From: Pachysolen tannophilus NRRL Y-2460
Lineage: Eukaryota
Assembly (NCBI GenBank): GCA_001661245.1
Contig: KV454014.1
Location: 636,954-700,953, forward strand
DNA length: 64,000 nt
Direction of reading: 5' to 3'
Position numbers and translations under genes: made by a program. The notes beneath the pieces are model-generated. The model searched no databases. It was not told the origin of the DNA and saw only the letters and a program-made list of their open reading frames with translations. This document shows positions 3,301 to 49,000 of this stretch, piece after piece (within the stretch, counting starts at the first letter, position 1; each line of letters opens with the position of its first letter).

Positions 3301-3341
<41 letters not shown>

Positions 3342-16576: not shown

Positions 16577-18715
16577 CTATACTATTACTTTAAATAAATA
16601 ACCCAATAAGAAAAAAAATAAATATCTTAAATCAACGTTATACTTGATGGAAAACATTAACAAAAAGCAAGAGAAAATTAGTAAAAAAATCGGATGTTTA
16701 AGCCAATAAGTTATAAAATGTGCATTATAATCTTTATATGGTAATGTCAATAATTTTCCATCACCAACACCAACACCAACATCAACATCTGTTGGATCAA
16801 TTTCTTTCTCAAAAGATTTTACCGTAAGTAACGTATCAGCAGACGATCTCTTATCATGGAAATTCATAAATGGCTGATGGTGAAGGCGGCTATCGCTCGT
16901 GGACTCATTATTTACCGAAATGGCTTTCAACTTTTCATAGATGTGATCTAATGTAATTATGACATCTTTCAGAAAAGGTCTCTTGGATGGATTTATATTG
17001 CACATGGAATTAATCAAGTCGATAAAATCTTTCAACAAGTAAGAATCATTAGTTTTATCTATTTCAGCGAGATTTTCAATATCAATGATCTTTCTACTGT
17101 TGAGAATTTCTTTATTATCGTAAAGGAAAAAATATTCACTCCTATTTTGATAATAATCTTTAATTTTATGTCTGATTAACTCCAGGTCATAGTTACCTTC
17201 AGTTCCATAAGGTAATTTGTTAAAACATAAATAGTATAATATCAAACCCAATGAATAAATATCGGTTTTCTTATTAAATTCATTTAAGCGATCACTGTTA
17301 TTTCCGGCACATTTTACTAATAACTCTGGAGCCGTATATTCTAAAGTACCTGTATACCCACTTGATTCTCTTTTAGTTCCTTCAAATATAGATTCACCAA
17401 AATCACTAACACATACTACGGGTATTCTATTCATATCATGAACAGAATTCACTTTTACTTTTTTGAAATCAATTTTTTTCTTTAAAAGACAATTTGAAGG
17501 TTTTAAATCTCTATGAATGATATGATTTTTGTGTAATTTATAGACACCGCTGCAAATATCTTTAAAAATTTTGAAAATTTCAAAATTATTTAAATAAAAA
17601 GTTTCATCTTTTGCCAATAAATTCTTGTTACCAATTTTCTTTAAAGTTTTCAATAACAGTTTTTTCTCCAAGAAACCTTTTGGCTTATTGAGATTCAGGA
17701 TTAAAGTTTCTAAATTTCCACCATCGCAATATTCAAATAATATAAATACACAAGGTATTTTTGGACCAAAAGTTGATATATTATCAATTTCTAACCAGAC
17801 ATGATTGTAATTAACCAAATTTTTCGTGCCATCTATATTAATGAAATTTTCATCATCTTCATCTTCATCTTCATCATTATCTTCGTCATGATCATTACTG
17901 TTGTTATTAGTTAAAGAATAGAGAAAGTTCACTTCTTTTAATATTTTTTCTAAATTTTCAATATTATTCCCTATTCCAATTTTCTTTAAAGCAAATACAC
18001 CTAAAGTTAAATCACTCAAGTTATGTTCTACTTTGAAAACTACTCCATTAGATCCATTACCTAATTTCTCTAAAATTTTAAAGAATTTATGGAAATAATT
18101 TGGTGAAAATAAATTTTTGGGAATGTTACCATATACATCAAAGGAAGCACTTGAATTCCCATCTTCAAGTTCAACTTCTTCAATGCTTGCAGATAATCTT
18201 GGAAGTAAATTATGCGTACGCGTTTCAGAATCAGTTTCAGTATCAACTTCATTATTGTTAGTGGCTTCGTAATCTAAATTGGCCAACAACTTAAAATAAT
18301 TACTATCCATATAAATAGCATTACTATCTGTATTAAAACCATGATTATGATCACCATCTGTATCGTTAAAACCTTGAGCACCATCGTGGAATTGAATATT
18401 GTAACCACAATTAGGACAAATTAAATAACCATCACCGCTTAAATGAGTACTAGATCTAACTCCGGATTTTCCTGTTGCTGCTTCATGTCTATCTATAACA
18501 TGATTACCGCCTAAATTATCATTCACACTTCCATAAAATGTATAGTTGGAATTGCCGCCATCATCATTGTTAATTTCACTTCCAGAACTACTATTTAAAT
18601 TGGACTTAACAATTTCAAAAGTATTTTTGGATTTATTATATAAAATTAGCGCATCTGATGGAGGATGATTCAACACTATTTTTAATTCATCATTTTTATA
18701 TAACACTACCGACAT
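16577..18715 (-). CDS. IKS1: Iks1-like Ser/Thr protein kinase with C-terminal hydrophobic segment
   Basis: LGNGSNGVVFKV, FALKKI, YNHVWLE, FGPKIPCVFILFEYCDGGNLE, HRDLKPSN, SDFGE; N-terminal CPNCG and YFKLL. Confidence 0.85.
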   Translation of the reverse strand: MSVVLYKNDELKIVLNHPPSDALILYNKSKNTFEIVKSNLNSSSGSEINNDDGGNSNYTFYGSVNDNLGGNHVIDRHEAATGKSGVRSSTHLSGDGYLICPNCGYNIQFHDGAQGFNDTDGDHNHGFNTDSNAIYMDSNYFKLLANLDYEATNNNEVDTETDSETRTHNLLPRLSASIEEVELEDGNSSASFDVYGNIPKNLFSPNYFHKFFKILEKLGNGSNGVVFKVEHNLSDLTLGVFALKKIGIGNNIENLEKILKEVNFLYSLTNNNSNDHDEDNDEDEDEDDENFINIDGTKNLVNYNHVWLEIDNISTFGPKIPCVFILFEYCDGGNLETLILNLNKPKGFLEKKLLLKTLKKIGNKNLLAKDETFYLNNFEIFKIFKDICSGVYKLHKNHIIHRDLKPSNCLLKKKIDFKKVKVNSVHDMNRIPVVCVSDFGESIFEGTKRESSGYTGTLEYTAPELLVKCAGNNSDRLNEFNKKTDIYSLGLILYYLCFNKLPYGTEGNYDLELIRHKIKDYYQNRSEYFFLYDNKEILNSRKIIDIENLAEIDKTNDSYLLKDFIDLINSMCNINPSKRPFLKDVIITLDHIYEKLKAISVNNESTSDSRLHHQPFMNFHDKRSSADTLLTVKSFEKEIDPTDVDVGVGVGDGKLLTLPYKDYNAHFITYWLKHPIFLLIFSCFLLMFSIKYNVDLRYLFFFLLGYLFKVIV

Positions 18716-19275
18716 TTTCGTCTCAAGATATCTTACCCATCCTATCCCAAGAATAGTAGAATCAATCTGAATTATTAATTAAATAGTTAAGATACAAAAA
18801 TAAGCATAAACTTGATGTTTTCTTTCTTATATTCAAAAGGGGCGTTTCGTTTGGTTTTATCTTAAATCTACAATTACAAAATAAAACTAAAATGAATAAG
18901 CTTAAAAGATTACAGCAAAAAAGATTGTAACAGTGGTAATTATGATAAAAAAGAATTATATATATATATATTTATAATTTAAAGCAGCATTATAAATAGT
19001 TGGTTAAATTCGTAAATTTCAGCTAATACAGTCCTGTTAAAAATAAAAAAAAATTGTCGTAGTATTTTTTTTTTGTCTTTCTTTCTTTCTTTCTTATTTT
19101 AATGCTTGAAACTTTCCGTCATTTCTTAAAATAAAAAAGTTTTATCTTTTTTCTTTTTTTTGTCTTTATTTGCTATTTGGATCTCTTGCAAGATGAAAAA
19201 GCTTTGTCTTTCTGAAGTGTTCTTGAAATGAATGTCTAGTGCAACACTACAAGTTATTCTTTTTTTTTTTTTTTG

Positions 19276-20867
19276 TTATTGATTTGGGTTGAAAACTTGG
19301 GCAAAAGAACTATTCTTGTCACCGTTTTGTTGCCATTCTGACATGATACTTTCCAAGATAGTCAAACCGCTGGTAATACCGACTGTAACACTTACTGGCA
19401 ATCCATAACCACCAAATAATTCACTAAAGGCCACAATTAAAGATAAGATACCTGCACCAGTAATGGATGCAGTTGGAATAACTTTGTTCAATTCTTTTGT
19501 TATAGCAGAGTCTCTATAACCCAAGATAGAAATTCCTTGTTCTTTAAAAGTCTTTGATAAATCATTACCAGAAGATCCTGAAACTGACGACCATGTTTTA
19601 GAAAATGAAATTGAAGTTGTGATGATGAAAAATGAGTATATTATAGTTTGTAAAAATTTGGAAATAATTGAATTATAGATTGGGGATGGGGAAAGATAAT
19701 ACAATAAACCACTAGTTAATTCATAATGAATTGAAGAAGATGATATAATATCATAATCTGCCAAGAATGTCTTTACTAATGTATTTGAAGCCATTTTTCT
19801 AGAAATTGCATAACCAAAAATGTTTAAATTGTATAAAACGGTAAAAGTGAATAAAATTGGCAATGAACCACAAAATAATAATTTTATTGGATAAGATTGA
19901 GACATTGACCTAACTTTTGTTGATTTAATTGTTAATTCAAATCTAAAATTTGCCAAATACATGACAATGGCAAATGTAATAATGGTAATATAAAATTGGT
20001 TTAAATTACTAAAATTCAATCTATTAAAAGATGAAATGATTGCAGATCCCAAAGGTTTAGTTCTAATATTTTTCATCAAGTTAACTAATGAGCCAACACT
20101 TTCAAAACCTCTAGCTGTTTTCAAGACTTGAATACCAATTGTGTTATAAGCAAAATTAGAAGCAATTGCAATAGTAAGTAAACTTAAAACACCAGATGAA
20201 AATCCATAACCTTTATCAATTAATTCAACCAATAAGGTAACAAACAACGTAGTTAAAGTGATCTGAGCAACAATAAGTGCCAGAGTAGTTAAAGATAATG
20301 GATTTCCAACAGAAGAATCAAAATATCCACTAGAAACCAACAGAATTGAATAAATAAAACTTAAAAAGACACTGGTAAGTTTTTGTAAAGTTTGAAACAA
20401 CAGTCTATCAGATTTCAAAGTGAAATTGACATTTAATAATCTGTTCCCAGCTGCAAGTTGCCACAAGAAAGCTGATGTCAAAATTGGTAATAAACCAAAC
20501 TCTAATAAAGTACCCTTTTCACTTCCAAAGATTGGCCTCAACCAGTAAAACGGATCTTTGATTGATAACTGTTCAGCTACTTTCACACCAACAATTGGAA
20601 ACTGCAATAGTAGATAAATAAAACATGAAACAAATGTGTAGATGATCTTATCATCAAATTCAGATTTCCCAAGAGAAATTTCAATTTCTGGAATAATAGA
20701 ACCAAAAGGTTTCATTAAATCAAGAAGGCGAACTATATTAAAAAAAAAAAGCACAAACTTTTAGTTAGTAAACATATACATATAACCGAAAGCAAAAGCA
20801 AAAACAAAAAAAAAAAAAAGATAAAAAAAAAACAACCAAACATTGATAATAACATACAACTACTCAT
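19276..20867 (-). CDS. SSH1: Sec61 paralogue Ssh1; exon 1 20867-20858, intron 20857-20733, exon 2 20732-19276
   Basis: ATGAGTAGTT|GTATGT, TACTAAC at 20770-20764, TAG|TTCGC. The spliced start is MSSFRLLDLMKPF. SecY-family TM pattern with GTLLEFG and YPIKLL. Confidence 0.92.
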
Positions 20868-21149
20868 AGTCTATACTTTAAGCAAATAATTACTTTTGAA
20901 TTTGATATATAAATTAATATATTTCAATAACTACTGTTTATCAATTATCGGTTTTTTTATCTCGTCCAATTAAGGCTTCATTCACTTTCTGAACGAAAAT
21001 TTGGTCAATGAAAAAAAACAAAAAAATTGAATAAAAAGTAGTGTATTAAGATGAATTAAAGAGATGAATTGCGTTCGTTTAAAAGAACAGAAGAGAAGAG
21101 AAGAGAAAGAGTTAGTTAAATATATTGGAGATTCGGTTGGTATAAGGTT

Positions 21150-21920
21150 ATGCCGGTTAAAGAGATAGGATTGGGGTCAGTAACGGGATCAGGGTCCCAA
21201 GTAGAGGAGTCAGATTTGTCTATTGCGGATGTTGATTCCAAGATAAGTTATAGCGATGCTATAGATTATTGGACTTCTATACCTCCAACTGTGGATGGAG
21301 TACTTGGTGGTTTTGGAGAACAAACTTCAGTTCCAAAAGCAGATATTGTTGGATCAAATACTTTTATAAGAAAATTGAAGACAAGGTTTTCTGTGGAAGA
21401 AGGGAAGGTGAAATATGGTATTGATTTTGGTGCAGGAGTTGGTAGAGTTACTAAGGATTTCTTGGTAAAGCATTGTGACAAAGTTGATCTTTTGGAACCT
21501 GTGGTACCATTTGTTGAAAAAATGAAGACAAATTTATCTGAATATATAGATGAGGGAAAGATTGGTGAAATTTACCAAATTCCGATGCAAGATTGGGAAC
21601 CTGAACCTAAAAAATATTATTTAATATGGTGTCAATGGTGTTGTGGACAACTTCCAGATAATGATTTTTTAAAATGGTTAGATAATTGTAAAAAAGCAAT
21701 ACAAGAAAATGGATTATTGGTAATAAAGGAAAATAATAGTACTTCAGATACTGATATTTTTGATGAAGTAGATAGTTCAAAGACAAGAACTGATGAAAAT
21801 TTTAGAAAATTATTTAAAAAAGCTGGTTGGAAATTAATTTCTACTGATAAACAAAAAGGTTTACCAAAAGAATTACTCCCTGTTAGAATGTATGCTTTAA
21901 AACCTGAAATAGAGAATTAG
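21150..21920 (+). CDS. TAE1: Alpha-N-terminal protein methyltransferase (Tae1/Ntm1)
   Basis: YWTSIPPTVDGVLGGFG, DFGAGVGRVT, IWCQWC, KEN, DSSKTR, GLPKELLPVRMYAL. Confidence 0.93.
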   Translation: MPVKEIGLGSVTGSGSQVEESDLSIADVDSKISYSDAIDYWTSIPPTVDGVLGGFGEQTSVPKADIVGSNTFIRKLKTRFSVEEGKVKYGIDFGAGVGRVTKDFLVKHCDKVDLLEPVVPFVEKMKTNLSEYIDEGKIGEIYQIPMQDWEPEPKKYYLIWCQWCCGQLPDNDFLKWLDNCKKAIQENGLLVIKENNSTSDTDIFDEVDSSKTRTDENFRKLFKKAGWKLISTDKQKGLPKELLPVRMYALKPEIEN

Positions 21921-22069
21921 TAAGATAATAATACTACATTAAATAATAACTAGAAATTAAAATTCCATTAAAATCTATATAAATACTTCAAAAAAAAATT
22001 ATTGGTTAGTAACTTATTTCTTCTTTATAAGATATCTTCTTTATTCAACTACTACATATCTTCAAAATT

Positions 22070-22166
22070 TATAAATCAGATAGGGGTGAAAGACTAATTT
22101 CGATGGTTGTTTTTATCTTCATACTAATTCAGTTGAACTATGCATTACTTTTCATCATCATTTTCT
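22070..22166 (-). ncRNA. SNR60: Box C/D snoRNA, snR60 orthologue (25S Am817 and Gm908 guides, S. cerevisiae numbering)
   Basis: Minus strand: box C ATGATGA (22161-22155), guide GCATAGTTCA + D' CTGA (22132-22129), C' TGAAGA (22121-22116), guide ATTAGTCTTTCACCCCTAT + D CTGA (22079-22076). The guides complement 25S UGAACUAUGC and AUAGGGG(C)GAAAGACUAAU, and the D+5 rule lands on A and G. Ends approximate. Confidence 0.9.
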
Positions 22167-22858
22167 ATAAATTTTATCAAATTGTATTTTGTAGTTAAAA
22201 CCAATTGAAACCAAGGCATGCTTGATAAAAAAACACAACTTACAATTTTTATTGATCACCAATTATTACTTGCTCGTTTATCAATTACTTATTTATTTTA
22301 AACAAATTTTCAATAATTAAAAGAGTTGAAAAATGAAAATTTTTTCTTAAATGCGTTTTTTTTTTCAAATATGCGTAATTTTCCACACCACCAAAACTCC
22401 GCTTTTACAAACACATATAATTTTTCAATAATGTAAAATACAATATCAAAATGAAAAGGGTAAATTAAAAGTTGTAAGAAACATAACATTAACAAAGAAA
22501 AATAAATGAAAAATAAATCCAAAGGTAAAGCAAACCAAGAATTGTTCTTTTTAAACCAACTGCTTCAAACGCCTAAGAAACATTTGCTTGAACCGCTAAA
22601 AAATTCACTTATTTTTACCGTCGCTAAATAATAGAAAGAGAAGAAAATTAAAATTAAAAAAAAAAAAAAGTACCACAAATCATTAAATTATTATACAATA
22701 AAACAAGCAAACATAGTGAAAAATTAAAAATTTGATATTGAATTTCAAATTTCTAGAACAGAAAACTTTTTATGTTCCTTAAATTTTTTTTCCGTCTTTT
22801 TTTTTCTTTATTTTCAATTGTATTCATTTTTTTTTTTTTTGTTTGGAAATAAATAAAT

Positions 22859-24373: not shown

Positions 24374-24448
24374 TTTTTATTCCAATTAGCAAGAAGAAGA
24401 GTAATAATAATAAAAATAATAATAAAAATAAAGACAAAACCCAAAAAA

Positions 24449-24503
24449 ACACACTCTCACACACACACACTCTCTCACTCACGCACTAACTCACGCACAC
24501 ACT
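24449..24503. repeat. (CA)n/(CT)n microsatellite upstream of the FAR1-type gene
   Basis: acacactctcacacacacacactctctcactcacgcactaactcacgcacacact. Confidence 0.8.
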
Positions 24504-25101: not shown

Positions 25102-25725
25102 ATGGAGCGCTCTTTTACTAAACAAAATTTGAATGCTTTGCAAAGTTTAATATTGCAACGATCTCATGAATCTACTTGTTTAAAAAAATTATTAATAGGA
25201 AATAAGTCTTGTAAATGTTACAATTTAAGTTCAGAAGAGTTTAGAATCAATTATCTATTGCTCAATGATTCAAATATTAAACTAGGTGATAAGGAAATAC
25301 AATCTCAAAATGATAATAATAATGATGATGACGATAACAAGAATAAAGATACATATCATAAGAGCGTCAAGGTTGATAACAGTATAGACGTATCTAAATT
25401 GGCTGAAAATTTAAAGGAAAAAAATGATTTAAAAATCCATCAAAGGGATGAACACGGGATTTCAATTTTATTTGATTCAAATGATAGTTCGTTATTAGCA
25501 TTAGATAATAATCAACATCATAATCATAATCATAAGCATGAACATGAACCACATGTTTCAATACCTATGATTAAAAATACTAATAATTCAAGGCTAAAGA
25601 TCAAAAATCGAACCCCCCACATCAGATCTAAAACTAATAATAGTTTTAAAACTAGTTGTTCTAAGAAGTCAATGTTAGTTAAAGATTTGAAGTTCCCCAA
25701 ATTGTCAAAGTTGAATAGAAGGTAG
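25102..25725 (+). CDS. Orphan 207-aa protein (possible meiotic, Mam1-like N-terminus)
   Basis: ATG-initiated 624-nt ORF in AT-rich DNA with host-like codon bias; upstream GGCGGTTA x2 and CACAAAT. Confidence 0.7.
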   Translation: MERSFTKQNLNALQSLILQRSHESTCLKKLLIGNKSCKCYNLSSEEFRINYLLLNDSNIKLGDKEIQSQNDNNNDDDDNKNKDTYHKSVKVDNSIDVSKLAENLKEKNDLKIHQRDEHGISILFDSNDSSLLALDNNQHHNHNHKHEHEPHVSIPMIKNTNNSRLKIKNRTPHIRSKTNNSFKTSCSKKSMLVKDLKFPKLSKLNRR

Positions 25726-25895
25726 TGTGTGAAGTTAATACAAAATACAATTGATAATTTAATTTCATGATGTAGAGATAAAAAATTAAAAAAAAACTCA
25801 ACCAACTATAAAGATATTATTAGTCCAAAAAAAAAAAAAATAAGAAAAAGAAAAAGAAAAGAAATTTAAACCAACAACTTTATGGGGACGCAAAA

Positions 25896-27802: not shown

Positions 27803-29056
27803 ATGTCGTTTATTAATATCTGTCGTGATAATACCGATCCTTTTTACCGTTACAAGATGCCTCCAATCCAGTCAAAGATTGAAGGTAGAGGTAACGGTAT
27901 TAAAACCGCTGTTGTTAATCTGTCAGAAGTTGCAAGAGCATTAGATAGGCCTTCAGCTTATATTATAAAATATTTTGGTATTGAGTTAGGTGCCCAGACT
28001 TCTATAAATGAGCTGACTGAAAGATATTTGGTGAATGGACAGCATGATTCGAATAGACTTCAAGAATTATTAGATGGATTTATTAATAAATTTGTCTTGT
28101 GTGGTGCTTGTAAAAATCCAGAGACTGCAATCATTATAAATAAGGATGATACTTTAACAAGGAATTGTAAAGCTTGTGGTAAGAAGACGCTTATTGATCC
28201 AAGACATAAATTAAATCAATTTATTTTGAAAAATCAAGTTACAAAATCGAAAAAGACTAAAAAATCTGCCACTGCTACTGCTAACGTTGTTGGTGGAGGT
28301 GTTACCATTAGTGATTTGGCTTCAGGTCAAAAGACATCATCTAGAGGTGGATTGGCCGATGATTCTCAGGATAGTGTTAATCAAGATGAAGAATTTTCTG
28401 ATGACGATGAATTAGCTAGAAAGATTAACGCCGAAGCACAAGCTTTACCTGAAGTTGATCCTGTTAAGGATGATGATTGGGCTGTTGATATGTCTGAAGA
28501 AGCTATTGCTAGAAGAGCAAAAGAATTAGAAGGCTTGAGTATTGATGATGCTAAAAAATCTTTAAGCAAATATGAAATATTTGGTGAATGGTTATATAGA
28601 CTGGATAAATCTGATCTTCCATCAGATATTGATATATATAAAAAGGCAAATGAGTTGGAAATAGTCAACAAGTCAAACACTTTAACCGTATTGGCACAAT
28701 GCTTGTTTGATGAAAACATTGAAGATGAAATCACACTTCATCATGGTTTATTAAATAAATTGATCACTTCAGATAAACATGAAAAAGCATTCTTGGGAGG
28801 TTTAGAAAGATTGGTCGGCTTGGATGTACCGGAATTGATCACAAAAGTTCCAAAAATATGCATGGCACTTTATGATAACGATTTAATTAGTGAAGAAACT
28901 TTTATAAAATGGGGGACAACAGTTTCTACAAAATTTGTAAGTGATAAAAAAATCGTTAAAAAAGTTAAAAGAGCCGCTAAACCTTTTATAACTTGGTTAC
29001 AAGAAGCAGAAGAAGATGAAGAAGAAAACGAAAGCAACGATGACGATTCAGAATAA
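27803..29056 (+). CDS. TIF5: Translation initiation factor eIF5
   Basis: DPFYRYKMP, EGRGNGIKT, CGACKNPET...CKACG zinc ribbon, W2 domain ending FITWLQEAEEDEE. Confidence 0.97.
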   Translation: MSFINICRDNTDPFYRYKMPPIQSKIEGRGNGIKTAVVNLSEVARALDRPSAYIIKYFGIELGAQTSINELTERYLVNGQHDSNRLQELLDGFINKFVLCGACKNPETAIIINKDDTLTRNCKACGKKTLIDPRHKLNQFILKNQVTKSKKTKKSATATANVVGGGVTISDLASGQKTSSRGGLADDSQDSVNQDEEFSDDDELARKINAEAQALPEVDPVKDDDWAVDMSEEAIARRAKELEGLSIDDAKKSLSKYEIFGEWLYRLDKSDLPSDIDIYKKANELEIVNKSNTLTVLAQCLFDENIEDEITLHHGLLNKLITSDKHEKAFLGGLERLVGLDVPELITKVPKICMALYDNDLISEETFIKWGTTVSTKFVSDKKIVKKVKRAAKPFITWLQEAEEDEEENESNDDDSE

Positions 29057-29180
29057 GGCAAAAAAAAAACTTACATATATATATATATATACCGTCCTCT
29101 ATTCTCCTGTGTTAATAATATATATATATATAGTTTACTATAGTTTACTAGTATTTTGGTATTTATAGTGTACCGCTTAA

Positions 29181-33665: not shown

Positions 33666-35843
33666 CTAATCTTCATCCATCTCTTCATCATAATCATCTT
33701 GATCCTGATCCTGATCCATCTGCTGATTATCAGCCTCATTTAGCTGTCGTTGTTGCTGTTGTTGTTGTTGTTGTTCACGCAGTAGCCCCTGCTGTTGGTC
33801 TTGCTGTTGCCGTTGTTGCTGAATAGTCTGTAAGGGAAATCCAGATGTCTGATTCTGTTGATGTGGCAGTTGCCCTGCTTGCGGAACTAAATTGCGAAAG
33901 TAATTTAACCTGTTAAATAAATCTATTGCTTCAGCTGGGATCCGTCCATTTTCCATATTTTGTCCCAGTATTGGTTCTCTTATAAATGCTATAGGACGCA
34001 GTCCACTGCCATCGAGTTGTGCTCTGAATTCGCCATCGTTTCTTGCAGCTAACATCAATCGCAGAGATCTACTATCCGCTTCATTTATCGGCCTATTCAT
34101 TAATAACCTCTGAACGGCATTATGCTGCCCATCTAGTATTGCTGTTGCTAAACTGCCACCACGATCATCAAATATGCTAATCAAATAACACCTAAGATTT
34201 TCCACTCCTCTACCACTGAAGACACAAAAAAGAGATCTTTGATGGTCTGAAAATTCAACTGGTGGCGATCTGCAAAATTTTGTAATATCATTTCTTAAAA
34301 AAGCCGTTATACCAGTTAATGATAAATGTGTTAGTTTAGGGCATGCCATCAACAAATTATAAATCGGTCTAAGAGTAATCTGGATACAATATGATAGATG
34401 TACTCTTTCTAAAGTATCTTCAAAAGTACGACGTGAATTAGCCAAGGCATTTATACCTTCATCTGTTATATTATTACATTTGACCAATCCAATCCTTCTC
34501 AATCTTGGTAAAGTTGACAATTCTCTTAAAGTTTCATTTGTTAATTGTGAACAACAAGCAAAATCAACATATTGTAAACGATGACAATTCCTTATTAGTG
34601 TAGCGGTTCCAAAATCAGTGATATTTGAACAATGTCCTAGATGAATATAGTGTAAACATTTTCCTAGCAAGGATAATGATCTTAATGATGCATCAGTAAT
34701 ATTAACACATTTCGATAACACGACATTTCTTAATCTAGGGGCTTTAACAACAAATTTTTCAACTGCTTTATCTCCAATTAAATTACAACTGGTAAAATCT
34801 ATTATACGTAATTTATCTAAGCACGGTTCATTTGGTAACAAATCAAAACATTCATCTGTGATATTATTATTATGCGATATTTTAAATTCTCTCAATTGCT
34901 CTAATTTGGCAAATAATATTTTCAAAGAAGCATCTGTGATCTTATTACAACCATGCAAATCTAACTCTACAACATTTGGACAATGTTCTGCTAATTCAAT
35001 CAATGTATCATCATCAATTTCAGAACACTCACTAAATTTTATTCTTTTCAACATTGGACAGCAACGAACCAATTCTAGTACCAGCAGTTTAGTAATTTTT
35101 TGTGAATTTGGAGCATAAACTCCCTGTAAACGAGGACAATTATGAGCTAATGTAATATATATATCATCTGTAATGTCTCTCACTCCGGTAAGATCAAGTG
35201 ATTGTAATCTTTTACAACCAAAAAGTAATTTATAAATTGAACTGTGGGTTAATTTTGAGCAATTGACCAAGGTTATTCTTTCTAAATTAACACAACCAAC
35301 AAATTGTTGAATAAATTCATCTGTCAGATTAGCTCCAATAAATGATAAGTTTAATCTTCTTATAAAAGGTCTATAATCCCAATAAGTTTGATCTCTTGGC
35401 ATTTTTAAAACTTCGGATATTTCACTTGCTGTGGCAACATTTTGTATTCCTGGTCTAAACCAAATCAAATCAATTACCATATCAGCCCATAGTTTACAAA
35501 CTAGAGCGACATTTATCAAATCAGATCTTTTATTTAAAAATGAAAAGATTAATAATAAAAGTTCTGGTGGCAACTTCATTATTGAAGAATTTTGTACAAA
35601 CAATTTAGAACTAGTCGAAAAAGAATTATAATTCTTATGCTCTGATGCAATGGACCCAGTTCTATTTTGTGATCTTTCCTTTATCATACTATAAAAAGCA
35701 TGTTGATCATCATCTATTTCAGTGTCTTGATCATCTTGCTGTTGTAAATGCAACGTAGAGGAACTCTTATGAAGTATATTATGATTCGAAAGATGATTAT
35801 TGCCGTTTCCAATATTATATGATCTATTATGATTGATATCCAT
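33666..35843 (-). CDS. GRR1: F-box/LRR SCF substrate adaptor Grr1
   Basis: F-box LPPELLLLIFSFL...VCKLW, about 12 LRRs, LERVHLSYC, CPKLTHLSLTG, FCVFSG. Confidence 0.95.
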   Translation of the reverse strand: MDINHNRSYNIGNGNNHLSNHNILHKSSSTLHLQQQDDQDTEIDDDQHAFYSMIKERSQNRTGSIASEHKNYNSFSTSSKLFVQNSSIMKLPPELLLLIFSFLNKRSDLINVALVCKLWADMVIDLIWFRPGIQNVATASEISEVLKMPRDQTYWDYRPFIRRLNLSFIGANLTDEFIQQFVGCVNLERITLVNCSKLTHSSIYKLLFGCKRLQSLDLTGVRDITDDIYITLAHNCPRLQGVYAPNSQKITKLLVLELVRCCPMLKRIKFSECSEIDDDTLIELAEHCPNVVELDLHGCNKITDASLKILFAKLEQLREFKISHNNNITDECFDLLPNEPCLDKLRIIDFTSCNLIGDKAVEKFVVKAPRLRNVVLSKCVNITDASLRSLSLLGKCLHYIHLGHCSNITDFGTATLIRNCHRLQYVDFACCSQLTNETLRELSTLPRLRRIGLVKCNNITDEGINALANSRRTFEDTLERVHLSYCIQITLRPIYNLLMACPKLTHLSLTGITAFLRNDITKFCRSPPVEFSDHQRSLFCVFSGRGVENLRCYLISIFDDRGGSLATAILDGQHNAVQRLLMNRPINEADSRSLRLMLAARNDGEFRAQLDGSGLRPIAFIREPILGQNMENGRIPAEAIDLFNRLNYFRNLVPQAGQLPHQQNQTSGFPLQTIQQQRQQQDQQQGLLREQQQQQQQQRQLNEADNQQMDQDQDQDDYDEEMDED

Positions 35844-37949: not shown

Positions 37950-39350
37950 ATGGCAATGACTGGGGGAGGTTCAGAGAATTCTGGGGATAATGGCAATGAT
38001 AGCAATGATAAAAAAATTCTGCCTCTGTCACAGTCTACGTTTAATACTCCAGGGATTGCCGCTGTTCATATTAATCTGGCAAGGGAACTGGTGGAGTTAC
38101 ATACAAGAGATAGAAGACCAAATTTAACGTTGGTGAATAATAAATCTCAGAGAATACTGCAGACACTGCAGACACTGCCAATGCTGTCAACGCTGTCAAC
38201 GCTGCAAAATTTACAAAATCTACAAAATCTGCAGAAATTGCCAAAACTGCCAAAACTGCAACTTCAGCAAGGTCAGAAGTTTCAAGTTCCATTATCCAAA
38301 AAGAAACAATCAACTATAACAACATCTACATCTACTTCCACTGATATAAAAATTCCAACTCATCATTCGCCATCATCAACTCCATGGCCGTGTTCAAATC
38401 CTCAATGCCAGCATTGTGGGTCGGTCATTATACCGGCACCACAATCTTCGTTACCTATAAGAGATGTACCTTCAATTTCAATAAAAAATTGGGATATATA
38501 TTTAACGAAAAATCCAATTTTAAATGCTACTGAATTGGAAGATTTTGAAAAAAGTTTTAATTTCCCCTTACCTGAAATGATCTTTGGTAATAATGGTATA
38601 GAGATTTATAATCCAATTTTAAAATGGGGGTTTAAAGTGAATTGTTTTGATTCTTTAAAATTGATTGATGATAATGTTGATCCAAGTAAATTGTTGAAAG
38701 TTAGTTATGCCAATGACTGGTATAAAGCAAGACAAGTTAAACATAATAGTAATAGCGTCGCTACCGGTACAATAAATGGTTCTAGTTCTAATTCTAGTTC
38801 TAATAAAAATGACAATCAAGATATAAGTAGCGGTAGTATCACAAGTGGAAGTAGTGAAAGTATCATGGAAATATATAAATCATTTGATTGGACATATACT
38901 ACAACATATAAAGGCGATGAATTTACAAATAATCTGAAACATTTTCAAAAAGATAATACGCGTGAAATTCCTCTACATAAATTAACAGATAAATTGCAAC
39001 CCATCTTGTTCTATCAAGAATTTGTTTTATATGAAGACGAATTGGGTGATAATGGGATATCAATCTTATCTTGCAAAGTACGTTGTATGAAAAATTGTAT
39101 GTTACTATTATTAAGATTTTTCTTGAGAGTGGATAATGTTATATTCCGAATCAATGATACAAGATTATACATTGATTTCGAAGAAAATTTAATAATAAGA
39201 GAATTTAAAACTCAAGAATCAAGTTATAACGATCTTTTGAAAAAAATTAATCCTTCGAGTGGAGATCCAAGAAGTTTATTAAGAGATAGCAATTGGGTAG
39301 CTCAAAATACAAAATTATTAAAGGCAGAAAGAGAATACGTTGAATTATGA
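37950..39350 (+). CDS. TIP41: TAP42-interacting protein Tip41
   Basis: NPQCQHCGSVIIP, LPEMIFGNN, DWTYTTTYKG, YEDELGDNGIS, RFFLRVD, LRDSNWVAQN. Confidence 0.95.
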   Translation: MAMTGGGSENSGDNGNDSNDKKILPLSQSTFNTPGIAAVHINLARELVELHTRDRRPNLTLVNNKSQRILQTLQTLPMLSTLSTLQNLQNLQNLQKLPKLPKLQLQQGQKFQVPLSKKKQSTITTSTSTSTDIKIPTHHSPSSTPWPCSNPQCQHCGSVIIPAPQSSLPIRDVPSISIKNWDIYLTKNPILNATELEDFEKSFNFPLPEMIFGNNGIEIYNPILKWGFKVNCFDSLKLIDDNVDPSKLLKVSYANDWYKARQVKHNSNSVATGTINGSSSNSSSNKNDNQDISSGSITSGSSESIMEIYKSFDWTYTTTYKGDEFTNNLKHFQKDNTREIPLHKLTDKLQPILFYQEFVLYEDELGDNGISILSCKVRCMKNCMLLLLRFFLRVDNVIFRINDTRLYIDFEENLIIREFKTQESSYNDLLKKINPSSGDPRSLLRDSNWVAQNTKLLKAEREYVEL

Positions 39351-39554: not shown

Positions 39555-40712
39555 TCAACACATTGCATTACAAAACTCATTATAAACACAATCGTCTAAT
39601 ATAACTATCCCATTAAGACTCAAATCGTTCATTAATACTAAATTTTTAAATATTTCTAATTCCAATAAATAAATTAGTTCGTCCACAACGTCATTTAGTT
39701 GAGCACGGTACTTGATACAAAATGGGTTATCATCTCCGTATAGTCCGAATTCGGGAGCTTTTAATACACTACTTATATTTAACGTTCTTAAATTTAATAT
39801 AAATCTTCTTAATATGATATTCATTTCTTTGTAGTTTTGGAAAGTTGAGTCTTTGATATATTCTTCAATAGCATCCAATCTGCGAAAATGCAATAAAAAA
39901 AAACGAAAACCACTGTTAGTAAGAATAACCAAATAATCGGATTTTTAACTCTTTAGTAATAAGTACTCTATATCATAATCAACAATTTTTGATCCGATCG
40001 CTTTCAACAAATTCTTAAATCTAATAAAGACTTTCATTAAATCTTTATTATTACAGTTATAAACTGTACCTAATCTCTGTGTATCTATACCATTACAAAT
40101 TTCTTAAAACAAAGTTAGTAAAGAGGTTATCTTAGCATATGGCAAAAACAACGTATATATTACCCCAGAAGACATACTAGACATACTTTTATCAATTTCA
40201 GCCGCGTTCTGCCTGTCATTAAAGCTTAACTTTTTCTCTTCAGAAACCGGAGAATAATTTTTTGAATTTTTGATATTTGAAAAGTCATTTAACAAAGTAT
40301 CGGCCAAGTCACTTTCCTCTTTGAAATAATTGAGGCCCGCTGAAATATATGAAAAACTTTTTCTATAATATTGGGCTTTTGTTTGATAATCCGAAATCTT
40401 TTTTAAAGGATACTTTAACATTGAAAGAATCAGATTAGCAGACAAACATGTCGAGTAAATGTAAGGAGATATTAGTCTCAAATTACAATTTTCTTCGTAT
40501 GAATATGTTAGATTATAGATTGTATTTTGTACAGAGGATATACCTTTGATTTTTTTCACTGTCCAATAAAGTTGCTGATCTTCTTGCTTTTTCTTGAATA
40601 TCTGGTTTATATTTTTTGATTTACTTATTTCTGACTCGCTCTCGTATTCTTTCAAAGTCCCACCGATTTCAGCTGCGGGTGGGTTTTGATTGAATTCTGA
40701 TTCATACTGCAT
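39555..40712 (-). CDS. Orphan three-exon gene, about 328 aa: exons 40712-40187, 40102-39967, 39879-39555
   Basis: Intron 1: GTATGT (40186), TACTAAC (40120-40114), AAG (40103). Intron 2: GTACTT (39966), TACTAAC (39921-39915), CAG (39880). Phases 1 and 2 join the two listed ORFs through a stop-free 136-nt middle exon (987 nt total). Confidence 0.75.
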
Positions 40713-41453: not shown

Positions 41454-41765
41454 ATGTCAGCAACAGAACAATTATCCCAGCAGCAGGCAAAGCAGGAGAT
41501 GATGCTTTTAAAGTATGCCCAATTAAAGCTAAAGAGAACAACGGAACAAAATAATAGGCTAAAAGATGTCTTATCGAGAGAGAAGATATATTCTTCCAGT
41601 AGAGCCATATGTATCATAAATTATACTCAACAACAAACTGATTATTTCATTCCGTCAATTTGGGGTACAATACCTGATGATCAAAACAAGTTCAAGAGAT
41701 TTAAGCTAGAAACACAACGTAAGAAATCATCTGCTTCCGGTGCAGGTTGTTGTGTCATTACATGA
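41454..41765 (+). CDS. STE18: Pheromone-pathway G-protein gamma subunit
   Basis: LKLKR..EQNNRLK..LSREKI.SS, DYFIPSIWG and a C-terminal CCaaX (CCVIT); one TGAAAC on the minus strand at 41381-41386. Confidence 0.9.
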   Translation: MSATEQLSQQQAKQEMMLLKYAQLKLKRTTEQNNRLKDVLSREKIYSSSRAICIINYTQQQTDYFIPSIWGTIPDDQNKFKRFKLETQRKKSSASGAGCCVIT

Positions 41766-41979
41766 TGAAAACTTGAATGTTGTTCTTTTCATATTGGTTC
41801 TTCTACTTTGTTTTCTTTTCCGAATTTTAGTTTATATATTTTTAATTAATGTCATATTCCCAATCTTTTTTTTTTTTCTTTTGTTAAGAAAAACGACACA
41901 ACCGGTAAACACACCCTAGCGATATATAACTACATCTAAAACCTTTGTTATATTAAACTTTAAACTTATCATTAACTAT

Positions 41980-42972
41980 CTAATCTGAATGAGTGTATGA
42001 TTTCAACACAATTTCAGCAATTTTTATATTTTCAGAACTTGATAAATCATTTTCAACAATTTTTTGTAATCTCTTGGTAGCTAACAGGTGTAAATCATCA
42101 TTTTGCTTTACATCAGTAGAAGATGACTTCTTAATTATCTTTAAGTTAACATCAAATTTTTTACTTGTCAATTTCAATATTCCAGCCCAACCTCTAACAA
42201 AAGTTTCACACAATTCCACCGATCTCAAAAAATGTTTAAGACTTAAAGATTTCAAAACCAACAAATTTTCAGAATTATGTGCACTTAACGATCCAGAATG
42301 ACTAACTGACAGATATAATTGCAACATTGATAATAAATATAATTCACCAATTTTGCTGAAAATGTTATATGCAAATGGTTCTATAAGTAAGACTTCTTGA
42401 TAACAATATACTGCTTTATCATATAAATTTAGCTTAGTGTATTCATTTGCCAATTCAGACCAAGTCATCAGATCTAAAGGTTTTATTTCTAAATATTCTA
42501 ATAATTTTGAAATATAAATCAGCAGTCTTTCTTTCTTTGTTGCCAATCTTGATTCTAAAATAAATTTTCTTCTTTTTATTAATAATAAGTCATCAACATC
42601 TTTAGTCTTATTTTTGAAAAAATTCACAGATTTATTTAAAAAATTTAACGCATCTTGAGGATTGAAAGTTGCTTCTATATAAACAGATTTTAATACTATC
42701 AATCTCTCAGACAGCTCGATATTGAACTTATCTTCCAAGATATCTAGCATTGCCTTGGCCTCAATGTCATGATTGGTTTGTATGCACAAATTGAAATTAA
42801 GTTCAATTATTTGATAATATTCAAATTCATTAATAGAAGAGTTTGGTGATGGATTCAATTCTATGAATTTGTGAGTTACTTTATAAACATCAAATAAATC
42901 CTTTGGATCTAATGTAGCAAATTTACCATACTTCTGAAGATCTAACAATCTGCTCTTAATTGCAGATGACAT
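41980..42972 (-). CDS. EMC2: ER membrane complex TPR subunit Emc2
   Basis: PLDxMTWSELANEY, AVYCYQEVLLIEPFAYNIF, HFLRSVELC..FVRGWAG. Confidence 0.88.
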   Translation of the reverse strand: MSSAIKSRLLDLQKYGKFATLDPKDLFDVYKVTHKFIELNPSPNSSINEFEYYQIIELNFNLCIQTNHDIEAKAMLDILEDKFNIELSERLIVLKSVYIEATFNPQDALNFLNKSVNFFKNKTKDVDDLLLIKRRKFILESRLATKKERLLIYISKLLEYLEIKPLDLMTWSELANEYTKLNLYDKAVYCYQEVLLIEPFAYNIFSKIGELYLLSMLQLYLSVSHSGSLSAHNSENLLVLKSLSLKHFLRSVELCETFVRGWAGILKLTSKKFDVNLKIIKKSSSTDVKQNDDLHLLATKRLQKIVENDLSSSENIKIAEIVLKSYTHSD

Positions 42973-43202
42973 TTTTTCAATAAATGAATATTCTTTTTAT
43001 TTTTGTTGAATACTTGGACAAATCCCATTTGATAAATTATAACTACTAACTAAAAACCAAAGAAAACCAAAGAGAAAAAAAAAATTAAAAAAAAAAAAAA
43101 ACACAAAACGGAGAAGTTTAAAAGTTCTCCAAAAATAACTTCTCCTTTAAGGAGAAACAAAATTGTTTCGTTTTAACTTCCTTAAACAGATCGGGTTTCG
43201 GC

Positions 43203-43627
43203 CTTATCAGCAAGATAGATAAATAGATAAATAGATAGAGATGAGGCATCTTAATCATCGTAGAGACATCAGATTTCAAAAAAAAAAATAAAAATAAAAA
43301 AAAAAACATGGTTATCTTAGGATGAATTTTTTGATTGATAAGTAAATATAAAACACGAAGGTTTTGTAGGTTGTAATTAATAGTACTCTGTTATGGATCT
43401 TTTAAACTTTGCAATTTTTATATGTAGTAGGAAATTATCAGAATTTGGTTATATGTCCATGTAATGTTAGGTCTTTTGCGACTTAGATAGGAGAAAGCAT
43501 TGATTAATCTATCGGCTAACGTTTCATGAAATTTAACAAGTTTTCCGGTAGTGAAATTATCTTTTATCTTTATGCGAACAAACAATTTTGACATTTATCG
43601 GCTAAGATAGATAAATAGATAGATAGA
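43203..43627. promoter_or_regulatory. GATA-site cluster upstream of the DAO gene
   Basis: CTTATC at 43203, GATAAG at 43337 and many GATAG/GATAA; exact repeats AAGATAGATAAATAGATA (43212, 43604) and TATCGGCTAA (43510, 43596). Confidence 0.55.
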
Positions 43628-43780
43628 TGCATTTGTATTTGTTTTTTTTTTTTTTTTTTTTTTTTTTTAGTTCTAAGCTGAGTAGTTATTAGATTATTCA
43701 AAGATATAAATTAGCATCATTAATTCAATTTTAGAAAATTTTCATATTTAGTAGTAATTAGATTTTAAATTTTTTGGAAA

Positions 43781-44887
43781 ATGCTGAAAAAAATTGTTGT
43801 AGTAGGGGCAGGTGTTATTGGCCTTACAACAGCTTATATCTTGTTGAAAAACAATTATCAAGTCTCATTAATTGCTTCATTTTTTCCAAGTGATTCGACT
43901 TCAATAATGGAATATACTTCAATGAAAGCTGGGGCATATTATGCACCTGGAGGTACACATGATACTCCATTAGAAGAAAGAAAAATTGATCTTCCAAGTT
44001 ATAGAGAAATTTTAAAAATTGCTCAAGATCATCCAGAAGCTGGAGTTTGGATAAAAGAAGCTATTCAATATATTGATAAATCACATAAGGAAGATTTAAT
44101 GGAAGCATTAACTTATGATGGTCCATGGTGGAAAAATCATGTTAATAATTATAAAAAAATTCCTGAAAATGAATTTCCAAATGATAAAATTGGATTTGGT
44201 TTTAAATTTGATACATTTATTATTTCTCCAATTCCATATTTACATTTTTTATTATCTGAATGTATTAAATTAGGTTTAAATTTTCGTCGTTATAAAATTG
44301 AAAATTTAGATTCTGCAATTGAATTTTTCATAAATCCAATTACTAAAAATTATGAAAAAGGTGATATAGTTATAAATTGTACTGGTAATGGTTCAATTAA
44401 ATTAGTTCCTCAAGATAAGAAAACTTTCACAATTCGAGGACAAACAATTTTAGTTGAAAATAATTCTTCAACTTTAAAAGTTGTTAGAATAAAAGATGAA
44501 AATTATCCAGGAGAATTTATTGGTATTATTCCAAGAAAAGAAGGTGGCTCATTATTAAATGGAATATATTCTTTCCGTGACAATTCATCATCAATAGATT
44601 ATGATTTAGCCAATAGAATCATTGAACGTTGTTTGGAATATGCTCCAGAACTTATTGATCCAAATTTCTCTAAAAATAAACCATACCTTAAAATAATTAG
44701 CCATAACGTTGGTTTAAGACCAGGTAGAGAATCAGGTCCAAGAATTGAAAAAGAAATTACTCCAAAGAAAACTCTTATAATTCATAATTATGGTGCCTCA
44801 AATGTAGGTTACATTAAAAGTTTCGGTCTAGCTGAAAAAGTATTAGATCTTATCAAACAAGAAGAAAAATTTAAGTATAAGTTATAA
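43781..44887 (+). CDS. D-amino-acid oxidase / D-aspartate oxidase family flavoprotein
   Basis: IVVVGAGVIGLTTA FAD-binding motif, YTSMKAGA, VINCTG, IRGQT, HNVGLRPGR..GPRIE, IHNYGA. Confidence 0.92.
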   Translation: MLKKIVVVGAGVIGLTTAYILLKNNYQVSLIASFFPSDSTSIMEYTSMKAGAYYAPGGTHDTPLEERKIDLPSYREILKIAQDHPEAGVWIKEAIQYIDKSHKEDLMEALTYDGPWWKNHVNNYKKIPENEFPNDKIGFGFKFDTFIISPIPYLHFLLSECIKLGLNFRRYKIENLDSAIEFFINPITKNYEKGDIVINCTGNGSIKLVPQDKKTFTIRGQTILVENNSSTLKVVRIKDENYPGEFIGIIPRKEGGSLLNGIYSFRDNSSSIDYDLANRIIERCLEYAPELIDPNFSKNKPYLKIISHNVGLRPGRESGPRIEKEITPKKTLIIHNYGASNVGYIKSFGLAEKVLDLIKQEEKFKYKL

Positions 44888-44936
44888 TTATAATTATAGT
44901 TATAGCCAATATAATTCTATAAAAGAATTACCAAGT

Positions 44937-44980
44937 AGTGTACATAGAGTGTACATTGAGTGTACATAGAGTGTACACTA
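44937..44980 (+). repeat. Four tandem 11-bp units AGTGTACA(TAG/TTG/TAG/CTA)
   Basis: Units start at 44937, 44948, 44959 and 44970. Confidence 0.95.
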
Positions 44981-45238
44981 TATATATATATATATATATT
45001 TAACAAACTTGTTTTTTTTTTCTTCCGGCTTTTATTTTTAAATCCTAATGATTCCGTATTTTTCTTATTTGTATTGTATTTTAATGTGGTGTTTGAGCCG
45101 AACTTCCCCTGTTCACCAGAATTTTTTTTTTAAAAAACTTGCGGATACTCCGCCCGTCTTGGCTCTTTCTCTTTTCAAAATATCGCTTAAGCGTGCAGCA
45201 GACAACACAGATTATTTAATTTAAACTGTAAGAGAACG

Positions 45239-45370
45239 CGGCCATTAAGGTTAAGAACCGCCTACGCGGTCAGTGCGGTCAATACGGTCAATGCGGCCAG
45301 TACGGTCGGTAAGGCCAACAAAAAATAAAACAAAATTAAACAAGGTCAGTACCGGTCATCACGGTCAGTC
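45239..45370. repeat. Degenerate 9-bp repeat array (C/A)GG(T/C)CANNN
   Basis: Tandem units at 45267, 45276, 45285, 45294, 45303, 45312, plus 45239, 45343, 45353, 45362. Confidence 0.85.
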
Positions 45371-46097
45371 TTTGGGCAGAGCTTTCCTTTCGCTGTCTAT
45401 TTTATTTTTTTTATTTTTTTATTTTTTATTTTTTCTTTATTTTTTTATTTTGTTGTTCTTTTTTCCATCGATTAATCGATTGATCGATCGTCGTTTATTT
45501 TTCTTAAAAGAAGAAGAACCGAACTCAATTTTTTTTTAAAAAAGAAATAGATAAAAACCAAAAAAAAAAAAAGAAGAAAAAAAATTGCAATGATAGTAAT
45601 AATATTATATTAATTTGATTAACAATGTATAACTACTGTTTGTTAAAAAAAATAGGTTGGGTTTTTTTTTGAATGAAATCGTCTTATCATTAATTAAGAA
45701 ATAGTTTGTTCCAAATTTTATTGTTACTGTTGGGTTTTTTTTCTCTTATTTTTATTTTTATTTTTATTTTTTATTTTATTTTATTTTTGCTACAGTTTAT
45801 TCTACTAATAATTAATAATCTATAATACGTATAATTTATACATAATTGTATATTATATTTGTTTCAAAGTACTTTATTTTATTCAACAAGAAACGAACGT
45901 TCGTTTAAATTGAAAAAGACAAGAGACAAAAAAAAAAAGTTAAAAAAATAAAATAGAATAAAAAGTTAATAAACTCATAAATATATATATATATATATAT
46001 TTATATATTGAATTTTGCAAAGAAGTGATAGAGAAAAAGAGAAAACTTGAAAAAATAGGTTATAGAATTTATCCAATCAATCATCATAATTTAATAA

Positions 46098-49000
46098 ATG
46101 AATCAACAAGTGTTCGGCGGTAATAACATTCCAGGTATAAATATAACTACCAGTAGCGGTAGTAATATAGATGATGCTAATAGTTTTGATCAATTGAATT
46201 TGAGCTCGACAACACCAGCGCCATTTAATACTTCGTCTGCATCAAAATCACCGCTCAGTATTAGTCCACAGTTGACTAATACATCTCCTTCTTCCTCGTT
46301 AAGTCTTGGAAGTGGGAATAATAGACCGCTGTCGTTGGATTTTAGCACTATGTTATTCAATGAATCTTTGCAAAACCATCAACTGCAGTTACAATCGTCC
46401 CGCCAACAACAACAGCAACAACAACAACAGTTACAGCTAAATAATTCAAATAACGGATTAGGATCGCGAACTAGAAATAGAGCCGGAACATTACCTTCAA
46501 GGTTTACCCCAAACTCAACTTCATCAGTTTTTAACTCTACGTTTATGCCAGGTGCCGCTGGAGGTGGTGTCAGCAGTGGTTCATCTAGTTTCAACAACAG
46601 TCTTAACTTGAGTCCTGGTTTACATGCTGTTAAAGAGTTAAACGACGAGTTGAATTTGCCAGCAAGAAATAGGATAAGATCAAGTTCTTTTCAAAACACT
46701 AATATTTGGTCCAATAACGAACAAGAAAAGTTTTTAATTTCCGGTGTTAATCATAGTAATAATAGTACTGGAAGTTTAACTGCAAGTTTTACTACACCTA
46801 CTCATAATAATATTGATTTATTATTACCAAATGATAATTTTTCTCATTATGCTTCTTCACATCAACATTTAGGTCCACAAAATAATTCTACAGCTGTTCC
46901 GCTTAATGGAAACAACAACAACAACAACAATAATAATAATAATAATAATACTAATATTAATAATAATAACAATATTGATACGAGCACTTCCACAACAACG
47001 TCAACCACTGCAAATAATGCAAACAATATTAATGGTAATTCGACGTTGAACAGAACAAGATCTTATTCAACAAATAACGTCTTGGTAGCGAATCCAAGTG
47101 ATCAAAATGTTTATTATTTACAACAATTTTCTAATAATCCTTCTAATATTATAGCTGAGGAGATTACACATGAAAACGGTACTACTGTTCATCATCCAAA
47201 TGATGTTTTTAATAGTATTAATAGTGAAAATGTTAACAACCATATTTCATTACAAAATCCTCAACAACAACAACAACAACAACAAATAAAATACTTGGAA
47301 AGACCAAGAGCACAGACCTACACCAATGGTGTTAATACTAATATCGTTCCATTATTAGAGCAATACCAGAATTTCAACATTGGTGATGGTAATGCTACAT
47401 TGCCATTATTACAAGATGATGTTCCGCTGCATACAATTAATTTTGTTTCCACTTTTCAAGATGCGACTTTAAATCCAAGTAATACTATTGTCTTGGTTAA
47501 TTTACCAAACAATGGGTTAGTTACGGCTTTGAATTTTTACAAGATTTTGTCGAAATTTGGTATTGTATTGAGCGTTAGAATTATCAATTGTTCAAATGGA
47601 GATGTAATTGTATTAGCAGAATTTAATAATATTGAAAGTGCTATGAATTCTAAAGCAAGTTTGAATCACCAAGAGTTAATCCCAGGTTTAAGTTGTATTG
47701 TAGCGTTTGCAAAAATTTTATCAATCAATAATGACACTACCATTGTAGAACAACAACAACAGCAAACTCAACAAATTCAGCAGGTCCAGCAAGTCCAACA
47801 GTCCCAACAGCAACAGGAGAAGCCTACTTCCGTATCACATCCACCACAACAGGGATCTCCTGTTAAAGATGCTTCAAACGAACAGTTCAACTTACAAAAT
47901 TCAAGCCCTCTATTCCCAGAACCTGCATTCAATGATAATCTAGATCAATTCAAAGAGATCATTAAACAATTTGAGGGAGATTTAACTGAAGAAGAATCGA
48001 GATACTTAAAACACATCATATATAATGCAAGTAAATATGATTCAGTCATGGAGAAAGGTTTTGGCCCATTACCAGAACCTTTAACTGCTAGAGAATTTGA
48101 TTCTCCAAAATTACGTGAAATCAGGAAAGACATTGAAGCAAATAAATTGTCACAGCAAGAAGTGGAAGAATTAGCTTTAGCTATGATTTCAGAGTTACCT
48201 GAGTTGGCAAGTGATTATTTGGGTAATACCATAGTGCAGAAACTATTTGAAATATGTTCAGCTCCTATAAGGGATATTCTCTTGATCAAGTTATCACCTT
48301 ACTTATCGCAAATGGGTATTCATAAAAATGGTACTTGGGCAGCTCAGAAATTAATATCGACAGCAACTACTCAGAGAGAAATGAAGATTATCAGTCATTC
48401 ATTGAAGCCATATTGTTGTAATTTATTCAATGATCAATTTGGTAATTATGTCTTACAGTGTGTTTTGAAATTTGGTAGTCCTTGGAATGACTTTATCACT
48501 GAAGCAATATTAGCTAAATTTATGGAAATTTCGAGAGGTAGATTTGGTGCTAGAGCTATTAGAGCATGTTTAGAATCAAACTTGATTACAAATGAGCAAA
48601 CTGCTGTTATTGCTGCAACTATTGTTACTCATGGTAATAATTTGGCTACGAATGCCAATGGTTCATTGCTTATTACTTGGTATTTCGATACTTATCAATT
48701 ACCAAATAGACATGCTATTTTTCTGCCATACTTAATTCCAAGCTTACTTCAGTTATGTACACATAAATTAGGATCTTTAACAATTTTGAAGATATTGAAC
48801 TATAGAAACGATTTGGGTCCTAGAAATTTAATCTTAAAGGAGATTTTTGGAGAATTACCTGAAGAATCAGATGCCGACCAACAGGAGCATCAAACTCCAT
48901 CGAAACCACCAAGTAAACTATTACGTGATATATTGTCGGACAACGTCAATGGTGTCTCATTTATTTACAAAATTATATCAATTCCATTGTTAGAAGCACA

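Follow-up and report, generated by a model that had tools for sequence, protein, structure and literature searches.

An alanine-type tRNA with a CAG anticodon and the reading of CUG as alanine in the yeast Pachysolen tannophilus

The reassignment of a sense codon is rare in nuclear genomes, and the reading of CUG as alanine is one of the three CUG reassignments known in yeasts. This codon is studied here in a stretch of 64,000 nucleotides from Pachysolen tannophilus NRRL Y-2460 (contig KV454014.1; G000:C4:636954-700953), called the window below, and in the assembly to which it belongs (12.6 Mb, 197 contigs). The window, with a G+C content of 28.7%, is AT-rich budding-yeast DNA. Nuclear CUG is almost certainly read as alanine in this genome (NCBI table 26), by means of a tRNA that carries a CAG anticodon on an alanine tRNA body, and the organism falls in the order Alaninales. 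A preliminary description of the window, made from its letters alone, had proposed both the alanine reading and the membership of this clade. Both proposals are supported by the tRNA, by public protein records that follow table 26, by the exclusion of leucine and by a tree of the Grr1 protein. Pooled homologue columns exclude leucine and alanine is seen at diagnostic sites; the columns alone do not choose alanine over threonine or serine. The code itself is already known: its description, backed by proteomics, dates from 2016, and it has been given an NCBI table and an order of its own.

The alanine reading calls for a CAG-anticodon tRNA bearing the G3:U70 identity pair. Such a gene, on an alanine tRNA body, is indeed present on contig C6 (G000:C6:217831-217902, minus strand, 72 bases). 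It was detected with a pattern that joins the start of the alanine acceptor to an anticodon loop with CAG; five matches resulted, one of them a tRNA gene according to ARAGORN. This program labels it as leucine, from the anticodon alone. The body is of the alanine type, with G3:U70, discriminator A73, a 5' GGGC, a variable loop of 4 bases and G37. Its first 12 bases are identical to those of the six alanine tRNA genes found (three AGC, three TGC). The identity of tRNA-CAG reaches 70-73% with three alanine tRNAs, to be compared with 54-65% for five leucine tRNAs, 56-57% for threonine and 51-54% for two serine tRNAs. Among the 14 tRNAs compared, G3:U70 is restricted to tRNA-CAG and the three alanine tRNAs, and the serine tRNAs of this genome carry G73. 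A DNA search indicates a single copy of the gene. Neither the leucine and serine tRNAs collected with a D-arm pattern (30 of 32 matches) nor the ARAGORN runs on the loci studied included a tRNA-CAG of the leucine or serine type; the anticodons of the long-arm tRNAs collected are AAG, TAG, TAA and CAA for leucine, and AGA, TGA, GCT and probably CGA for serine. A looser pattern, based on the anticodon loop and the T loop, is uninformative: it produced 117 matches versus 47 in a reversed control, misses the real tRNA-CAG, and yielded nothing tRNA-like by eye in the 100 matches listed. The window itself holds no tRNA gene.

Alanyl-tRNA synthetase recognises the G3:U70 pair, not the anticodon. Because the enzyme reads this pair and ignores the anticodon, the expected outcome is alanylation of tRNA-CAG and, with it, the decoding of CUG as alanine; the short variable loop of this tRNA would keep the leucine and serine synthetases off. 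A copy of an alanine tRNA with a mutated anticodon would have captured CUG after, or during, the loss of the ancestral tRNA-Leu(CAG). The codon CUA would be read by tRNA-Leu(UAG), whose wobble base is presumably modified, as proposed in PMC4937558. The same source points out that G3:U70 is insufficient alone, since some tRNA-Leu(CAG) possess it; here, in contrast, the entire body of tRNA-CAG resembles an alanine tRNA.

A few further properties of these tRNA genes were observed. By pattern, the alanine tRNA genes (six genes within L006-L012) have only AGC and TGC anticodons, with no CGC. In their acceptor stem, the alanine tRNAs have U6 and U67 mismatched where tRNA-CAG has a normal pair; the T stem of tRNA-CAG, for its part, contains one mismatch. 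The sole TAG-anticodon gene retrieved, a tRNA-Leu(TAG) at G000:C8:422116-422249 (minus strand, L027), contains a 52-base intron. Of the 63 tRNA matches that were scored, 12 lie on contig C10 within 29 kb, a cluster that is probably mitochondrial DNA.

The tRNA-CAG described for P. tannophilus (PMC4937558) likewise begins with G1GGC4 and has G3:U70, A73, G37 and no extended variable loop. Its reported identity to alanine tRNAs, 62-77%, brackets the 70-73% measured here, the alignment methods being different. No difference from the table 26 code of P. tannophilus was found. In the CUG-Ser1 (Serinales, table 12) and CUG-Ser2 (Ascoideales) clades, by contrast, CUG is read by a tRNA built on a serine body with a long variable arm. 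In P. tannophilus, liquid chromatography coupled to tandem mass spectrometry found alanine at 97.2% of 907 CUG positions, a decoding as unambiguous as that of AUG (PMC4937558), and another tabulation of mass spectrometry data lists alanine at 243 and leucine at 3 of 256 CUG sites (PMC5951914, Supplementary Table 1). In this same table, alanine is found at 134 of 137 sites in Nakazawaea wickerhamii and at 472 of 497 in Peterozyma xylosa. The order Alaninales, with the family Pachysolenaceae (Pachysolen, Nakazawaea and Peterozyma), is diagnosed by CUG-Ala (PMC5951914, PMC11182611), and the protein family OG0016373 is named as diagnostic for it (PMC11182611).

In the window, the preliminary description had singled out eight CTG codons, all of which proved to be CTG, in frame, with the coordinates and strands given. 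They are listed here with a counter-site in eIF5 and a gene of the Ssh1/Sec61 type (ORF, open reading frame):

16970-16972, minus strand: CTG of a protein kinase, subdomain XI, residue 584 (ORF 16577-18715)
19279-20715, minus strand: Ssh1/Sec61-like gene with three CTG, studied by SecY domain scores and PDB alignment
27920-27922, plus strand: CTG of eIF5, residue 40, the counter-site (ORF 27803-29056)
35082-35087, minus strand: two adjacent CTG of Grr1, residues 253 and 254 (ORF 33666-35843)
35325-35327, minus strand: CTG of Grr1, residue 173 (ORF 33666-35843)
38076-38078, plus strand: CTG in the N-terminus of Tip41, residue 43 (ORF 37950-39350)
42469-42471, minus strand: CTG of Emc2, residue 168 (ORF 41980-42972)
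43784-43786, plus strand: CTG of D-amino-acid oxidase, residue 2 (ORF 43781-44887)
48723-48725, plus strand: CTG of a Jsn1/Puf1-like protein, residue 876 (ORF 46098-49631)

Each CTG was masked as X, and the homologue residues opposite were then counted. On this basis, four of the eight cited sites favour alanine, two are uninformative, one has no usable homologue and one fits neither residue. Jsn1 residue 876, offered as an alanine position, is alanine in 94 of 120 homologues (Thr 17, Val 8, Ser 1, Leu 0). The first description is also supported for the RPF[CTG]KD motif of the kinase, where alanine leads the column in 23 of 70 paralogues (Ile 9, Leu 8), and for the PLD[CTG]MTW motif of Emc2, where alanine is again the commonest residue (23 of 72 homologues, Leu 6; 72 of the best 74 matches after a length filter) and is present in the PDB chain 6wb9_2. 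The CTG pair of Grr1 must be divided: residue 254 is alanine in 84 of 119 homologues and serine in 6, and residue 253 lies in a variable column (E28, D23, P17, A13, S11 of 119) that makes it a weak example. Elsewhere in Grr1, leucine codons other than CTG face 46-74% leucine in the homologues, versus 1% for CTG. The M[CTG]KKIVV start of the D-amino-acid oxidase had to be rejected as evidence: residue 2 is unconserved, is Gln in PDB 1c0i and lies outside the coverage of the best match. For residue 43 of Tip41 no usable homologue was found, the PDB matches not covering the site and a metagenome scan returning no relative. In the Ssh1/Sec61-like gene, the CTG-encoded residue 105 is opposite Glu in 2ww9 and Ala in 8dnv, and the SecY score amounts to 154.9 bits with CTG read as alanine, 153.0 with serine and 152.0 with leucine.

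Tip41 has a peculiarity of its own. Nine of the 14 CTG codons of the gene are found in a short tandem-repeat linker (38148-38270, plus strand). There the +2 frame is open as well, and over 40 codons its fit to the codon usage of the window is superior by 11 log units; no second place of this kind was seen in the 23 genes tested. One possibility is a double frameshift, the second compensating the first, either old or introduced by the assembly, and the CTGs of the linker may then merely echo another frame. The linker lies downstream of the site at 38076, which it leaves unaffected.

The residues opposite CTG were also tabulated over 86 sites located in columns at least 80% filled. Kinases contribute 39 of these sites (71 domains: the window kinase and 70 of the 115 matched in the genome), mitochondrial carriers 23 (19 distinct proteins drawn from 30 loci), DEAD-type helicases 11 (16 proteins drawn from 30 loci), and Emc2, Grr1 and eIF5 together 13; Jsn1 is outside the pool. 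As a control, the method assigned 59 of the 60 other codons correctly. The Ala-minus-Leu log-odds of CTG is +32.9, versus a mean of -134.5 for true leucine codons (standard deviation 12.5, maximum -88.1, 2000 equal-sized draws). CTG is far outside this control, and leucine is therefore excluded on average. The mean leucine fraction is 0.09 opposite CTG and 0.35-0.36 opposite the other leucine codons. Nine of the 86 sites stand in columns with a majority residue: Leu in three, Lys in two, and Gly, Tyr, Val and Ala in one each. CTG is thus unlike leucine codons and unlike ordinary GCN codons, and lies mostly at poorly conserved positions. This agrees with the literature, in which CUG is disproportionately rare in the conserved regions of Ala-clade species (PMC5951914, Supplementary Fig. 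14 legend) and absent, at the strictest cut-off, from the strongly conserved leucine or serine positions of Pachysolen (PMC4986446). A test pooled over distant paralogues is blind to conservation specific to a subfamily; a CTG site where the MAP kinases have alanine, for instance, falls in a column occupied by Gly in 51 of 70 kinases.

Comparisons with closer relatives are in favour of alanine. When the paralogues are at least 45% identical, alanine is the top residue over 19 CTG sites (0.19; Leu 0). Elsewhere in the genome, the activation-loop CTG of a MAP kinase is opposite an alanine of Fus3, and one CTG of a Pho85-like kinase is opposite an alanine of Pho85, the other two facing positions of the Asp/Gly type or poorly aligned. 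Pfam scores were computed under each reading for 28 domains of 22 proteins (18 of 22 candidates and four window genes), after removal of two duplicate PK_Tyr rows and with a win threshold of 0.3 bits. The summed difference is +25.6 bits for alanine over leucine, with 11 domains for alanine and 6 against, and +8.5 bits for alanine over serine, with 9 for and 4 against. These scores favour alanine, by modest margins.

Public protein collections (NCBI, UniRef) contain, without any mismatch, the table 26 readings of Grr1, eIF5, Emc2 and the mitochondrial carrier (4 of 4). None of the four table 1 readings is present, nor is the table 12 reading of Grr1, the one sought. The letter-for-letter agreement implies that the depositors had already applied CUG=Ala to this DNA. 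The phylogenetic position was approached through Grr1, with an IQ-TREE analysis of 25 rows: 23 named homologues picked from 119, one close relative and the window gene. The window gene groups with the Pichiales (support 100/98), outside the Serinales (100/100) and apart from Ascoidea. Order labels in this tree were assigned by hand; it includes no named Alaninales row, and its one Ascoideales row is on a long branch. The Pichiales alone receive 77/63, and a place inside them is compatible with this one gene. The topology fits the position of the CUG-Ala clade, which has been placed beside the Pichiales (PMC5951914). This place, together with the under-representation of CUG at conserved sites, is shared with the Alaninales as described (PMC5951914, PMC11182611).

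Several results weigh against the alanine reading. In the pooled test, Ala (-19.6) comes below both Thr (-9.4) and Ser (-11.3), and no residue is above zero. Alanine comes out on top in 456 of 5000 bootstraps, to be compared with true alanine codons, called alanine in 2000 of 2000 draws. The pooled tabulation has thus excluded leucine but has not singled out alanine over threonine or serine. Among the nine majority-residue columns, leucine outnumbers alanine three to one. Leucine beats alanine in 6 of the 28 Pfam domains, and 12.0 of the 25.6 bits in favour of alanine come from a single Sel1-repeat protein. The counter-site at eIF5 residue 40, absent from the examples given earlier, lies in a column of Leu 72, Thr 21, Val 14 and Ala 10 (119 homologues), and the CTG-encoded residue 235 of V-ATPase H is opposite Leu in PDB 3j9t. 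Grr1 residue 173 had been judged a better fit for leucine or valine; the column fits neither leucine nor alanine, with Val 105, Ile 11, Ala 2, Met 1 and Leu 0 in 119 homologues. The Rfam search scored 63 of 1003 candidates, so that the census of tRNAs is not complete. Finally, a public annotation with table 26 is the choice of an annotator, showing that the code was already known and not the decoding itself.

The rival codes must be judged against the same data. Threonine, at the top of the pooled test, was ruled out, as there is no acceptor stem of the threonine type and Pfam favours alanine by 12.3 bits (21 domains of 16 proteins, summed by hand). A serine code (table 12; CUG-Ser1 or CUG-Ser2 clade) would agree with the slight advantage of serine in the pooled test and with the four Pfam domains in which it outscores alanine. 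It is nonetheless highly improbable: the sole tRNA-CAG found carries A73 instead of the G73 of the serine tRNAs and lacks their long variable arm, the Ala-minus-Ser value of CTG (-8.4) is outside the range of true serine codons (maximum -21.3, 2000 draws), serine is rare in the alanine columns of Jsn1 876 (1 of 120) and Grr1 254 (6 of 119), and the table 12 version of Grr1 is not in the public collection. The Grr1 tree, moreover, separates the gene from Ascoidea and excludes the Serinales. The standard code, in which the alanine-like sites would be chance substitutions, is used by the sister order Pichiales (PMC5951914) and would explain eIF5 residue 40 and the three leucine-majority columns. 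It is the least credible of all and can be practically dismissed, given the low leucine fraction opposite CTG, log-odds far beyond the leucine control, the contrast between CTG and the other leucine codons of Grr1, and the absence of CAG among the anticodons of the long-arm leucine tRNAs retrieved.

A subtler alternative is that CUG is mainly alanine with a leucine leak that matters, some of the sites in leucine columns depending on it. The leak could arise from a mischarged, G37-bearing tRNA-CAG or from wobble reading by tRNA-Leu(UAG). G37 is indeed present, and is known to cause partial leucine mischarging of the Candida tRNA-Ser(CAG) (PMC4937558); a tRNA-Leu(UAG) gene exists, as do CTG sites in leucine columns. 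This alternative is nevertheless quite unlikely in view of the published P. tannophilus spectra cited above (leucine at 3 of 256 sites, PMC5951914; unambiguous alanine, PMC4937558), of a tRNA-CAG without the long variable arm of leucine tRNAs, and of the 10 homologues in 119 that naturally carry alanine at position 40 of eIF5. Somewhat less doubtful, if still improbable, is the view that eIF5 residue 40 and Grr1 residue 173 preserve CTGs left over from the reassignment: these would have stood for leucine in the ancestor and would have been turned into alanine by the change of code and not by mutation, perhaps still with some leucine by leaky decoding. If this were true, a small, site-relevant Ala/Leu ambiguity would be kept in this yeast. 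Alanine decoding by tRNA-CAG remains by far the preferred interpretation.

CTG accounts for 89 of the 13,454 codons in 25 ORFs, a number similar to that of CTA (82); GCG is rare (22). In eIF3c (partial), Ski2, the mitochondrial carrier and the AFG3-like protease, CTG is found at most once per gene. It is concentrated in low-complexity regions, and genes whose tails are long and of low complexity contain 8-14 each. The acidic ribosomal P protein had been quoted as free of CTG:

51790-52448, plus strand: RPP1, acidic ribosomal P protein, with one intron (51957-52291)

The count is correct (none in 107 codons), but is not specific evidence, because CTT, CTC and CTA are absent as well.

A Pfam match was obtained for 21 of the 25 window ORFs scanned. 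The genes so identified include eIF3c, an HMG-box protein, a Rab GTPase, a protein kinase, a Sec61-like subunit, V-ATPase H, eIF5, a BIR protein, Grr1, Erv/Alr, Tip41, G-gamma, Emc2, D-amino-acid oxidase, a PUF protein, Mam33, a mitochondrial carrier, Ski2 and an AFG3/FtsH-like protease; names finer than the Pfam family come from the names of homologues or from recall. Four ORFs of 200-940 codons had no match at E 0.001: 3083-5893 (plus), 25102-25725 (plus), 40104-40712 (minus) and 52807-53934 (minus). Assembly gaps, with 1130 N in the window, are located at about 2100-2600, 11000-11500 and 14000-14500; long A or T runs border at least two of them, and spurious ORFs result. The stretch is contained in five of the seven sequencing runs listed, with no RNA run listed among these. 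Locus tags of homologues suggest a conserved gene neighbourhood over 27803-49631: the Komagataella pastoris relatives of eIF5 and Grr1 are BA75_04542 and BA75_04545, and other relatives of eIF5 and of the PUF protein are Kpol_520p5 and Kpol_520p3.

The window constitutes a positive control, in which a real change of code was recovered from raw sequence without database searches. For the organism, the consequence is practical: the genes of this genome need to be translated with table 26, failing which about 7 residues per 1000 (89/13,454 codons) would be wrong.

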